NCBI GenBank assembly: GCA_964564895.1
Contig: CAZMCB010000003.1
Location: 6,800 to 64,904 of the forward strand
Direction of reading: 5' to 3'
Source of the DNA: an uncultured Pseudomonadales bacterium
Lineage (GTDB): Bacteria; Patescibacteriota; Microgenomatia; UBA1400; MFAQ01
DNA: 58,105 nt
The position numbers and the translations under genes were made by a program. Positions within the stretch are counted from its first letter, which is position 1. Each line of letters begins with the position of its first letter. The notes under the pieces are model-generated. The model saw only the letters and a program-made list of their open reading frames with translations, was not told the origin of the DNA and did not search any database. Shown here piece after piece: positions 1 to 58,105 of the stretch.

Positions 1-32
1 TGTGAATCTCCCGTGATAAAATTGTTTTGTTC

Positions 33-440
33 ATGAAACGCCGAATTCTTATTATCTCGTTAATTTTTATCTCCTTCTTATTTACGATTGCAGGATCTAC
101 CCATGCTCTTCCTGGTCCTTTTTGTACCCCAGAAGGAGGTGAAGCTGATAGTGGTATCCGCACCGCCCTTGGTTGTATCAAAGTTATCGGAGATAATGCC
201 GGAAACGATCTCGTCAAAACAATTCTTCAGATAGCCACCGGTCTTGGTGGTGGAATTGCTCTCGCCCTTATTCTTTATGGTGTCTTTATCGTCACCACCT
301 CAGCCGGCATGCCCGACAAACTGAAAGCGGGCGGTGAAATTATTACTTCAGCCGTCATTGGTCTCATCTTTATCCTTCTCTCTGTATTTTTGGTAAATTT
401 AATTGGTATTAATATTCTGGGTATACCCGGACTAACCTAA
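33..440 (+). CDS. TrbC/VirB2-type (T4SS) pilin-like protein 1
   Basis: Two long hydrophobic helices flanking SAGMPDKLKAG..ITSAVIGL, aligning with the other 8 array members; N-terminal signal ending STHA-LP. ATG at 33 preferred over TTG at 27 (TG-a-TAAAAT at 14-22). Confidence 0.75.
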   Translation: MKRRILIISLIFISFLFTIAGSTHALPGPFCTPEGGEADSGIRTALGCIKVIGDNAGNDLVKTILQIATGLGGGIALALILYGVFIVTTSAGMPDKLKAGGEIITSAVIGLIFILLSVFLVNLIGINILGIPGLT

Positions 441-444
441 TAAT

Positions 445-795
445 ATGCTTACTTCCTATGCATTAGCCGCCACCCTTGGACCAACTGTCAATATTTCCGC
501 CATTACCAGTACTGCAACCAATATTGGTAACAATATGAAAATTGGTGATCTTCTCAAAGGAAAAGATGGTGGTCTGGATATTATCAATTTAGTATTCATA
601 ATTGTCGGACTCATTTTCTTTGCTAACCTAATTATGGTTGGCTGGGAATACATGATGAGTTCCGGAGATCCCAAAAAGACTCAATCTGCTGGTATTCGTA
701 TCGTCAATGGCCTCATTGGTCTTATTCTTGCTTTTGTCGCCTTTATAGTTGTTAGGTTAATCACTAATATTCTTGGACTTGGTACTCTTGTATAG
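445..795 (+). CDS. TrbC/VirB2-type pilin-like protein 2
   Basis: YMMSSGDPKKTQSA..IVNGLIGL motif between two TM helices; leader MLTSYALA-A. Confidence 0.8.
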   Translation: MLTSYALAATLGPTVNISAITSTATNIGNNMKIGDLLKGKDGGLDIINLVFIIVGLIFFANLIMVGWEYMMSSGDPKKTQSAGIRIVNGLIGLILAFVAFIVVRLITNILGLGTLV

Positions 796-818
796 CCTCA
801 TCTTGGTATAATCAAACC

Positions 819-1529
819 ATGCAATCTCCTATAAAACATGTTGCAATCATTATGGACGGTAATCGTCGTTGGGCCAAGGCCAAAGGTTTCGACTCAGTTA
901 AAGGTCACGAACAAGCCGCCAAAAACGCCGTTGAGCCTCTTATCGAAAAGTGTGTCGAGCTAGGTATTCCCTACGTCACTTTCTGGGCATTTTCTACTGA
1001 AAACTGGAAAAGAGACGAAGATGAACTCAAAGGATTGTTTGATGTTTTTCGTTTTGCTCTTGGTCAGCTAGCTCTTCGTTTCATTCAAAGAGGTGCTCGT
1101 CTAAGAATACTAGGCGATGTCAGTCGTTTTCCCAAAGATATTGCCCAAAAATCTCTCGAGATGATCAGTAAATCCGCCAACAACCACAAAATTACTGTTA
1201 CTTTTGCTCTAAACTATGGTGGACGAGACGAAATCCTAAGAGCGGTGAAAAAAATGATTTCAGACAATGTGTCTCCAGAAAAAATTGATGATGAACTTTT
1301 TTCGTCTTACCTAGACACTTCCGGCATTCCTGACCCAGACTTAGTTATTCGCACTGGCGGAGAAAAGCGTCTTTCCGGTTTTTTGCCTTGGCAATCTGTC
1401 TACTCCGAGTTTTATTTCACTCCTGTCCTCTTTCCTGACTTCTCTCCCAACGAGCTCGTCTTGGCTATTGATGATTTTCTCATAAGAGACCGACGCTTCG
1501 GAGGCGACACTTCCAAACAGTCTAAATAA
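819..1529 (+). CDS. uppS: Undecaprenyl diphosphate synthase (cis-prenyltransferase)
   Basis: HVAIIMDGNRRWA, FSTENWKR, ALNYGGRDEI, PDPDLVIRTGGEKRLSGFLPWQ, RRFGG motifs. Confidence 0.97.
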   Translation: MQSPIKHVAIIMDGNRRWAKAKGFDSVKGHEQAAKNAVEPLIEKCVELGIPYVTFWAFSTENWKRDEDELKGLFDVFRFALGQLALRFIQRGARLRILGDVSRFPKDIAQKSLEMISKSANNHKITVTFALNYGGRDEILRAVKKMISDNVSPEKIDDELFSSYLDTSGIPDPDLVIRTGGEKRLSGFLPWQSVYSEFYFTPVLFPDFSPNELVLAIDDFLIRDRRFGGDTSKQSK

Positions 1530-55550: not shown

Positions 55551-57724
55551 TGGGTGCATTCATAGCCACAATATTTACAGTAGTTGTTGTAGCAATTTCT
55601 TCTATTGTCATCACCAATCCCAATATCAACTTTGATAATCGCTCCAAGGCTATGATGACAGAGGGTGGAGGAGGAAATATTCCAAAGACCATAGCTAAAC
55701 CTACAGCGAAACCAATACTAAAACCAACAGGCACTGCCAACGCTCAAATTGGTGCGACTCCTTCACCCAAACCCACATCAACCCCAATTCCATGTAGTTG
55801 TGTTGGTGGGCACCTTACAGGTAATTGTGGTGCCGGAACAGGATCCCCGTGTTCAGCAAACACTACCACAACCACCCCCTCTCCAACATCTTCAGGCACC
55901 GACCTCCTTGCCGAAAAGAAAGAATGCCAAATGAATGGTGGTGCATGGACAAACAACAAATGTGTTTACCCCACTTCTACTGCCTCTCTTCCCAAACCAA
56001 CAACTTCAAATTCTTCTGCATCTGACTCCTGCGGAGATGGTATGGTCTGTTCAAGCATATCCAGCTCATCGTGTATTAATGGAGATGGTGAGCCGACACC
56101 TTGTGTAAAGAGTGGCGGGGCTACCGGCAACTGTTGTTCTCCAATCAACCAACCCACCACGACACCCACCACCTCTCCAACCAAAGCTGTAGCCACTGTC
56201 ACCCCCACCTGTGTCAAAGAAGGAGGCACATACAAAGACGGTGTTCCTTGCTGTTCTCCTCTCGTCAAAGTAGTCACTCCCTACGGAGCATACTGTGGCA
56301 AAAAGGGAGAATGTACCCCTGGTACGAAAAAATGTCAGATTGGAGGAAACAACACATATTTTGAATATCTTTGTGACTCTTCTGGATATTTCCAACAAAA
56401 CAAACGCTGTGACTTTGGATGTTTCAATAACTCTTGTAGTACTGGAGGCTGTACTGCGGGTCAAACCAGATGTGACCCCTCAAGACCAAATGAACTAGAA
56501 ACCTGTACTGGAACTGCTTGGTCTGGTAAGTCTTGTGACTATGGTTGTGAAACCGTAAGTAGTACAAAGGCTCAGTGTAAAACTTTAAGTTGCACCAATC
56601 CTGCAGGAACTCCAAATGTAACCAAGATCTGCAACGATGCTGGAGGTTACAACTACTGCAGCAGTGATGGTAAATGGTACTCCAAGAAGTGTGAAGGTAC
56701 TTCTGTTTGTGAAAAAGGAGAATGCATTTCAAAATTCTTAAAAGGAATAGGAGAAGCTTGTGCATCTGAGTCTGAATGTCAAACTGGTTATTGTTATTCA
56801 GGCAGTGATACGCTTGGTGGAAGTCCTTTTGATACAAAAGACACTTGTCATGCTAACCCAGTGTCGGTGATGGATGATCTCAAGGTGACTGAAGCAAAAG
56901 GCACAATTATTGGAGGCGCAATAGTCGCAGCAGTCGCCGTTCCAGAAATACTATTAGTTACTAATGTGATAGATGATGCCGCCACAATTTCTCAGTGTGC
57001 ACTTACTCAAGACCCAATAGCATGCCAGTGGGCCTTTGCTACTGTTATGAATCCTGTTCCAGGAACCTCTGTTGCAAGAGAAGTTGTTGAAGAAAGTGCC
57101 GATCTTCTCAAGTACACAGATGATGCGGTAAATATTGCAGATAGTTTTGATAGTGTTTCACTTAGAGCAAATAACGCACTTCAAAACGTAACAAGAGAAG
57201 AAACACTAACACTCTATCACGGATCACAGGGAGATCTTGAGTCAATTTTAAACAATGGAATATATGGAGTGGCAGATGGCGGCCCCACACTTTCAAACCA
57301 TATGATGGATACTCCTTTAGAATTTGCTTCAGGAAACGGCGTAAGTATAATGCAATCATCACAAATAAAAAATATGGGTGGTTACATCGTTGAGGTCAAA
57401 GTGCCTCAAAGTAAGGTTGCCACTACAGATCTTGCTGATAGTGAAATTTATTATGCCCTTTCTGCAAACAATCCATTACAGCCTAACGCTTCCTCTCATA
57501 ATCATGTAGCTCTTTCACCGAACTTCATCAAAAACATTTATCCTGTTTCGGCCAACGGAGTCGTCAATTCAGCTATACCCGAGACTGAATGGGCATCATT
57601 TGCAAGCCAATTTAATGTGACGAGGAATAACGTAATTGAGGAACAATTATATTTACGTCTAAAAAACATGCTCCCCAACGAAAGTGAAGAAGTTATTCAA
57701 AATTTATTTCAAATGTACAAATAA
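55550..57724 (+). CDS. Modular Cys/Thr/Pro-rich surface protein C with C-terminal ADP-ribosyltransferase-like domain
   Basis: Same N-terminus; TLYHGS (57218)..SILNNGI..PTLS..LEFA..GYIVEVKVP..SEIYY..LSPNFIKNIY follows the ART-fold strand order. Confidence 0.6.
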   Translation: MGAFIATIFTVVVVAISSIVITNPNINFDNRSKAMMTEGGGGNIPKTIAKPTAKPILKPTGTANAQIGATPSPKPTSTPIPCSCVGGHLTGNCGAGTGSPCSANTTTTTPSPTSSGTDLLAEKKECQMNGGAWTNNKCVYPTSTASLPKPTTSNSSASDSCGDGMVCSSISSSSCINGDGEPTPCVKSGGATGNCCSPINQPTTTPTTSPTKAVATVTPTCVKEGGTYKDGVPCCSPLVKVVTPYGAYCGKKGECTPGTKKCQIGGNNTYFEYLCDSSGYFQQNKRCDFGCFNNSCSTGGCTAGQTRCDPSRPNELETCTGTAWSGKSCDYGCETVSSTKAQCKTLSCTNPAGTPNVTKICNDAGGYNYCSSDGKWYSKKCEGTSVCEKGECISKFLKGIGEACASESECQTGYCYSGSDTLGGSPFDTKDTCHANPVSVMDDLKVTEAKGTIIGGAIVAAVAVPEILLVTNVIDDAATISQCALTQDPIACQWAFATVMNPVPGTSVAREVVEESADLLKYTDDAVNIADSFDSVSLRANNALQNVTREETLTLYHGSQGDLESILNNGIYGVADGGPTLSNHMMDTPLEFASGNGVSIMQSSQIKNMGGYIVEVKVPQSKVATTDLADSEIYYALSANNPLQPNASSHNHVALSPNFIKNIYPVSANGVVNSAIPETEWASFASQFNVTRNNVIEEQLYLRLKNMLPNESEEVIQNLFQMYK

Positions 57725-57786
57725 ATATTTGAAGCGTTTTTCATTTTTCAATCAGTCATATTCCCTAGTTTCTCATAAGAAAAAAA

Positions 57787-57824
57787 GAGGCCGGAGAGGG
57801 AATCGAACCCTCGCATGGAGGTTT
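57787..57824 (-). tRNA. 3' half of a tRNA (positions ~36-74), probably tRNA-Cys
   Basis: AAA-CCTCC-ATGC-GAGGG-TTCGATT-CCCTC-TCCGGCC-T-C: perfect T-arm, acceptor 3' strand implying GGC start and U73 (Cys identity); no D-arm or acceptor 5' strand in the window. Confidence 0.8.
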
Positions 57825-58104
57825 ATTTATCAACAACCTCCCTATTCAAGAATTCTAAATATTTATTATATTTATATTTCAAATATGGTGCATTGACGAT
57901 ATTGTGATAAATATATCCTGCGACCATAAGTGCGTTCCTACAGTTATATCTCAATCTATATGCATTAAATTCAAACGATAAAGAACATCTAATTGTCGGA
58001 AAAATGTATTTTATTAAAACCATCAATTGTTCTAGAAATATCTTACTTCCACTCGTGAAAATAATATTCATTCTAATATGTTTTGTCTTCTCAACATTAA
58101 TACA
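57823..58104 (-). CDS. C-terminal part of a LAGLIDADG-like homing endonuclease (open at window edge)
   Basis: Frame is open from the window end: CINVEKTKHIRMNIIFTSGSKIFLEQL...AYRLRYNCRNAL..YIYHN...YLKYKYNKYLEF; resembles the second half of LAGLIDADG_3 proteins; the namesake helix is outside the window. Confidence 0.55.
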   Translation of the reverse strand, partial: CINVEKTKHIRMNIIFTSGSKIFLEQLMVLIKYIFPTIRCSLSFEFNAYRLRYNCRNALMVAGYIYHNIVNAPYLKYKYNKYLEFLNREVVDK

Positions 58105-58105
58105 T

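Follow-up and report, generated by a model that had tools for sequence, protein, structure and literature searches.

Chromosomes in which one strand carries an excess of G over C along its whole length were described by Kadnikov et al. (2020; PMC7143001) for 'Ca. Chazhemtobacterium aquaticus' Ch65, whose genome is closed, and for one genome each of the Collierbacteria and Beckwithbacteria, a fourth family of the order UBA1400 being reported as free of this G/C disparity, and the authors proposed either unidirectional theta replication or a terminus (ter) situated near the origin (ori). Chen et al. (2020; PMC7111523) mention some bacterial genomes with a skew 'indicating rolling circle replication', and in Pseudoalteromonas chromids unidirectional replication with a one-signed skew was shown by coverage (PMC7858055). 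Our literature search found no later study of whole-chromosome disparity in these bacteria. Here we analyse a stretch of 58,105 nucleotides (hereafter the window; contig CAZMCB010000003.1 of assembly GCA_964564895.1, positions 6,800 to 64,904 of the forward strand; GTDB lineage Patescibacteriota, Microgenomatia, UBA1400, MFAQ01), which contains dnaA and dnaN, two genes that act in replication, and we find that its GC skew keeps one sign across this apparent origin.

Over the whole window (1..58105, both strands) the + strand is C-rich and the − strand G-rich, with equal sign on both sides of dnaA-dnaN. The + strand holds 13364 C vs. 10006 G (skew -0.144; binomial p 3e-107), 52 of the 58 1-kb windows have more C than G, and a count of all 968 60-nt lines gave C>G in 637, G>C in 265 and equality in 66. 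The skew is -0.166 left of dnaN, -0.248 between dnaN and dnaA and -0.125 right of dnaA, and the cumulative G-C curve falls steadily, being highest at base 4 and lowest at 56284. Crude calls of open reading frames (ORFs; longest non-overlapping, ≥90 aa) yielded 50 long ORFs, of which 49, in both gene orientations, have a + strand skew below zero at their third codon positions (GC3 skew), the sole exception being 46598-47194 (−), and ORF-free DNA is likewise richer in C (842 C vs. 599 G). Because third codon positions in both gene orientations and ORF-free DNA agree, the asymmetry is a property of the strand; neither the coding strand nor chance in the sampling accounts for it. A preliminary description of this DNA had drawn the same picture from nine hand-counted 60-nt lines, all of which recount exactly: C>G flanking dnaA-dnaN on both sides, + strand genes included, is confirmed by the 1-kb windows and the ORFs, and its claim that no skew switch occurs at the apparent origin stands, since the contrary sign it named, a cumulative skew extremum at dnaA-dnaN (~20 kb), is absent from the computed window curve.

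The same one-signedness extends beyond the window. The window's own genome (G000) consists of 50 contigs, unordered and unoriented, one-signedness there being a per-contig statement; its 27 largest contigs showed no sign switch, and in the 22 contigs of ≥10 kb the sign of the own contig is found in 486 of 516 ORFs (≥150 aa) and 205 of 219 3-kb windows. We turn for the whole chromosome to single-contig relatives, foremost G037 (905,201 bp), another species of the window's genus with a DnaA 81% identical, in which the cumulative skew rises monotonically to +63,073, G exceeds C in 87 of 90 10-kb windows, the + strand GC3 skew is above zero in 844 and below zero in 35 of 886 called ORFs, and ORF-free DNA has a skew of +0.155 (overall GC skew 0.168, AT skew 0.006). 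Equal sign was found in 20/20 sampled 20-kb pieces of G025 (same family, other genus, one contig) and in 22/22 sampled pieces of G167 (same order, other family, one contig). In this lineage, one strand is the G-rich one over the whole chromosome, at silent sites, within genes of either orientation and between genes.

We considered whether the skew could be a coding-strand, codon-usage or amino-acid effect, given that most window genes lie on the + strand. There is indeed a real preference for C on the coding strand at 4-fold sites, and the total skew is weaker where genes lie on the C-rich strand; splitting the 4-fold sites of G037 by gene strand nevertheless gave a + strand skew of +0.27 in + genes and +0.56 in − genes, which decomposes into a strand term of ~0.42 in skew units and a coding-strand C preference of ~0.15. 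With − strand genes and ORF-free DNA carrying an equal + strand sign, the coding explanation is refuted by these counts and keeps a negligible probability. Because 4-fold sites of both gene strands and ORF-free DNA share their sign, the asymmetry of G037 is mutational rather than coding; at its 4-fold sites the G-rich strand is also A-rich (A>T). G037 contains one island of near-zero skew (618000-646500, 28 kb; L032-L034), which starts beside a LOOT RNA match (L033 1745-1854) and which is probably recently acquired DNA, since recent acquisition would leave DNA unskewed; contig C7 of G000 (36.7 kb, skew -0.02) resembles it.

The preliminary description had offered, as one way to account for the missing switch, that the assembly is wrong or that a recent inversion has an end near oriC. 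Scaffold C3 does have a 40-N run just ahead of the window, and the only N run of G037 (100 N, 443065-443164) adjoins its biggest change in skew strength (~446 kb), just before the ribosomal-protein/rpoB region. Against such an artefact, the window itself is without any N, and its positions 705-51686 are colinear (inverted) with 597490-549532 of the congener's assembly, ~48 kb unbroken across dnaA-dnaN. An inversion would flip the sign, and no flipped block was seen; furthermore, same-sign skew recurs in 15 separate genome records (surveyed below) and in a published genome closed with Nanopore reads (PMC7143001). We consider an artefact scarcely credible. The region is represented in public data: at least half of the words sampled from 15101-25100 are present in four public runs from two studies (wastewater and bioreactor metagenomes), one of which may be the sample of origin, and in four of 22 public runs (X1, X2, X3, X6) the region was recovered as contigs of 0.3-1.5 kb at a depth of ~3-5, one of them spanning 19813-20727; such pieces are too short and shallow to bear on depth slope or on order over long distances. 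One joint in a run contig (18770/26939, 21-letter sides) was set aside as probably spurious. Separately, G000 has two rpoB matches, one full (C14:235-3462) and one partial on a 2-kb contig (C37:6-1934), which points to a strain mixture or slight contamination of the bin.

The locus itself has the make-up expected of an origin. The genes dnaN (18797..19909, −; DNA polymerase III beta; TIGR00663, 281 bits, above cut-off) and dnaA (20217..21596, −; TIGR00362, 459 bits, above cut-off) enclose a 307-bp spacer, the oriC candidate (19910..20216), in which six DnaA-box-like 9-mers (≤1 mismatch) are packed into 113 bp (20104-20216) and adjoin an AT-rich stretch (~19910-20060) spotted by eye, a candidate unwinding element; the spacer itself has G = C (44/44). 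Upstream of dnaA lie a perfect DnaA box (21644..21652, +; sequence match), a short ORF read by eye as a putative rpmH (L34; 21812..21947, +; sequence only), rnpA (21952..22290, +; TIGR00188, 51 bits, above cut-off) and yidC (22525..23277, +; TIGR03592, 153 bits, passes the NCBIfam cut-off). Counted with the DnaA-box consensus, clusters of ≥4 boxes per 400 bp occur once in all 769 kb of G000, in this spacer, and once in the 905 kb of G037, at the homologous place. Because of the unique box cluster, the AT-rich stretch and the rpmH-rnpA-yidC neighbours, we identify the dnaA-dnaN spacer, with rpmH-rnpA-yidC diverging from it, as the predicted canonical DnaA-dependent oriC. It shares gene order, spacer box cluster and, by eye, an AT-rich stretch with a Bacillus-type oriC and differs from it in that the GC skew, instead of switching sign, makes a small step in the same direction on a large offset, after control for gene strand. 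Three further DnaA-box-like 9-mers, one of them perfect and each on the + strand, stand at 46513-46580, in the spacer that precedes the ORF with the exceptional GC3 sign (46598-47194, −); a promoter regulated by DnaA, or a local inversion of small size, would be conceivable here.

It may be argued that the active origin lies elsewhere and that dnaA-dnaN is merely a gene pair here. In some bacteria dnaA does not adjoin oriC, and at 90-91 kb of G037 (89981-91077) two perfect DnaA boxes lie in 1.1 kb of ORF-free DNA, which precedes an Xer-like gene. Yet the sole box cluster of both G000 and G037 is the one at dnaA-dnaN, and no sign switch occurs in G037 or in any of the sampled pieces of G025 and G167; with no switch anywhere, moving the origin explains nothing. 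This second suggestion of the preliminary description is thus very improbable, and we reject both misassembly and a displaced origin as explanations of the skew.

To see how widespread the trait is, we compared the skew flanking dnaA in 50 genomes from 41 families of the class. Same-sign flanks were found in 15 genomes of nine families (f1, f3, f5, f9, f11, f18, f23, f25 and f30) and a normal flip, in some cases weak, in 29 genomes (G121 of f4 among them ambiguous), four genomes being too weak to call and two lacking a right flank; families f1, f3 and f5 are thus without a switch, and f2 is normal. Outside f1 and f5 the same-sign evidence covers 9-20 kb each side of dnaA, not whole genomes, that of f30 is weak (-0.10 / -0.12), and the right flank of f23 is merely 1.7 kb long. 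Nine of 41 families is not an unbiased frequency, because f11 and f25 were picked for carrying ung, the gene for a family-1 uracil-DNA glycosylase. Both polarities occur: the strand that bears dnaA is the G-rich one in seven families (f1, f3, f5, f11, f18, f23, f30) and the C-rich one in f25 (3/3 genomes) and f9. On DnaA trees the window sits among Microgenomates-type sequences, not Saccharibacteria, and a same-sign Amesbacteria contig (L089) groups with f18; the trait needs six changes on the DnaA tree, at least four of them forced by well-supported branches. The DnaA tree is incongruent with the order labels and so gives no species tree, and the number of origins of the trait may differ from these counts. 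These results suggest that the trait reaches beyond the three published lineages, same-sign skew across dnaA having been seen in nine of the 41 sampled families and in both polarities. As to ung (TIGR00628), it turned up in only 11 of 61 genomes of the class (among them G000, at C4:29276-29899, G025 and G082; the tally includes G101), and the ung-positive families f11 and f25 are same-sign; we dropped it as a cause of the skew, in that same-sign G047, G057, G062 and G069 have no detected ung and the ung-positive families f13 and f27 flip.

What kind of process could mark a chromosome in this way? A sign held constant through spacers and through genes of either orientation implies a process that acts from a fixed site and with one polarity round the circle, and effectively unidirectional replication is the simplest process of this kind. 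The uniform-skew strand term is ~2-3 times the ordinary half-step at oriC of flip-type relatives (0.08-0.50 logit, or ~0.04-0.24 skew units, in eight genomes), which hints at longer single-strandedness than a coupled fork provides, and the two polarities relative to dnaA are what would be expected from loss of either fork. We reasoned that the mutational asymmetry may come from a process that treats one strand as exposed or leading all round the circle, that this process would be replication from the dnaA-dnaN oriC, either effectively unidirectional or with one parental strand left single-stranded for long (strand-asynchronous synthesis), and that a two-domain gene orientation, described below, would be an inheritance from bidirectionally replicating ancestors that has not yet been remodelled; which strand leads, sequence alone cannot say. 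We favour effectively unidirectional or strand-asynchronous replication from this oriC, with a relic bidirectional gene layout, but we do so tentatively, allowing it somewhat less than an even chance. Unidirectional replication had also been raised in the preliminary description; it is the hypothesis published for related lineages (PMC7143001) and conflicts with a gene layout that looks bidirectional.

This layout and several further features weigh against unidirectional replication. Gene orientation in G037 falls into two domains, with 77% of coding bases on the − strand at 111-647 kb and 65% on the + strand elsewhere, and G025 and G167 have a similar split, so that in all three genomes orientation switches within ~70 kb of dnaA and again approximately opposite it. 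The 23S rRNA gene (787 kb, +) and rpoB/rplB (475/461 kb, −) of G037 point away from dnaA (576 kb), as do all of these genes in G025 and G167 and rpoB/rplB in G082, and in G000 the strands of rRNA, rpoB and rplB relative to skew match those of the relatives, the rRNA genes of the lineage lying on the G-rich strand. A single fork with a G-rich leading strand would leave 61-64% of coding bases head-on, rpoB and rplB included. With gene strand controlled for, 4/4 uniform-skew genomes tested keep a small step at oriC, canonical in direction (window, logit 0.18, permutation p 0.048, and p 0.22 for ±20 kb; G037, logit 0.23-0.26, p ≤0.008, with the island at 618-646.5 kb left out; G025, logit 0.21, p 0.01; G082, logit 0.17, p 0.054). 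Finally, skew strength in G037 and G025 changes gradually and dips ~300 kb away from dnaA, on the side of rpoB, a course that is neither flat nor a sawtooth. We rejected accessory DNA as the source of this low-skew zone, as the trend holds when the 886 ORFs of G037 are narrowed to the 469 with a G000 homologue.

Several of these observations speak for an alternative in which replication is still bidirectional from dnaA-dnaN and the G excess comes from a second, strand-specific and fork-independent process; candidates for it are the copying of the whole chromosome, now and then, by rolling circle or strand displacement, and a bias in which template strand is inherited. The orientation switches, the co-orientation of rRNA and rpoB/rplB with diverging forks in three families (DnaA 37-54% identical to the window's) and the residual oriC step would all follow, the asymmetry does lie far above the ordinary replication skew of relatives, and the best Xer-like recombinase gene (G037 91126-92013; G000 C2:39866-40753; G167 349204-350094) is 37-46% of the chromosome distant from dnaA, not beside it. 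No process is known, however, by which an entire strand would be marked regardless of the way the fork runs. The layout is common to the flip-type relative G045, which has the same relative arrangement of rRNA, rpoB and rplB, and may for that reason be an inherited relic. Unbiased segmentation of G037 placed its main breakpoints at ~446 kb (by the 100-N gap), at ~151 kb and at the island and did not choose oriC, and the log-likelihood gain of a model with ter=111/ori=578 was 126, whereas the best pair gained 216 and a cosine, which beats any two-step model, gained 234. A hidden bidirectional step was therefore dropped as a full explanation, the step being real but small and passed over by both segmentation and breakpoint fits, and was kept as a hint.

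Two further points count against bidirectional replication with a second process. A search with a core dif motif gave no convincing site: in G037 there were 2-mismatch matches at best, 10/12 of them inside ORFs, in G000 the best match had one mismatch, and none was common to the two. An element of ~15-18 nt upstream of the Xer-like gene is conserved in G037, G000 and G167 (two families), and from its sequence looks more like a promoter or operator than dif. Moreover, relaxases are mostly missing from the type IV secretion system (T4SS) loci described for Patescibacteria (PMC12102498), which counts against a second process. Altogether, we hold bidirectional replication with an added source of G excess to be unlikely, though a serious competitor. 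Its more specific form, in which the separate process is new to bacterial main chromosomes and has been gained or lost several times in the class, with either polarity, strikes us as doubtful. Notwithstanding, effectively unidirectional or strand-asynchronous replication remains the reading that we prefer, and the clash of a one-signed skew with a bidirectional-type gene layout poses a sharp question for metagenome coverage profiles.

Other features of the window are given here for completeness. T4SS-like genes lie on both sides of oriC (445-4503, 13707-15551 and 39590-42784) and include an array of small pilin-like ORFs with weak NF045849 matches below cut-off (445-795, 1862-2185, 2188-2571), a VirB4-like ATPase (NF045971, 376 bits) and a protein of 1064 aa in which stretches resemble VirD4/TraD and Nudix (weak matches); T4SS genes near dnaA and VirB2-like arrays have already been described in Patescibacteria (PMC12102498). 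Rfam and tRNA scans of the window gave no matches.

GC skew is a standard tool for locating origins and for checking closed genomes, and on chromosomes without a skew switch an origin call or an assembly check based on it would fail. Beyond this practical concern, the trait suggests that these ultra-small, uncultivated bacteria replicate in an unusual mode or have a strand-marking process as yet unknown, and the trait can be set beside three known systems. In vertebrate mitochondrial DNA, which is copied by strand displacement, one strand is compositionally distinct round the circle. Such distinctness of one strand, with a strong position-dependent 4-fold skew, is shared by the chromosomes described here; the G-rich strand of the mitochondrial molecule is T-rich, whereas here it is A-rich at 4-fold sites, and no sawtooth discontinuity was seen in the G037 profile. 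The Pseudoalteromonas chromids (PMC7858055) prove that a large bacterial replicon can be copied one way and share with our case a large replicon and a one-signed GC skew; they are secondary replicons of plasmid descent, initiated by RepA, whose dif lies beside ori, whereas the window's lineage has a sole main chromosome of the DnaA/oriC type, in which no dif was found and the Xer-like gene is far from oriC.

The closest likeness is to Ch65 and its kin (PMC7143001). As in the disparity that Kadnikov et al. described, the skew is monotonic (G037), is not driven by gene strand and has no comparable A/T counterpart. Shared with the Ch65 type are a near-linear cumulative GC skew on a closed chromosome of ~0.8-1 Mb, the lack of an overall A/T disparity (cf. 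the AT skew of 0.006 in G037), slightly more genes on the C-rich strand and a sister family of the order that is normal (f2 among the present families). Differences lie in the strength of the skew, ~0.33 in Ch65 as calculated from the published base counts vs. a weaker 0.17 overall in G037, and in the rRNA genes, which are on the C-rich strand in Ch65 and on the G-rich strand in the window's lineage. The trait of the window's genome is a lineage trait, rare, that was already reported for Microgenomates in 2020. In the parts drawn on here, the 2020 account (PMC7143001) gives gene counts per strand and does not address their spatial layout, a residual step or polarity; what we add is a class-wide survey that includes both polarities, the size of the asymmetry, and the coexistence of one-signed skew with a bidirectional-type layout and a residual step at oriC.

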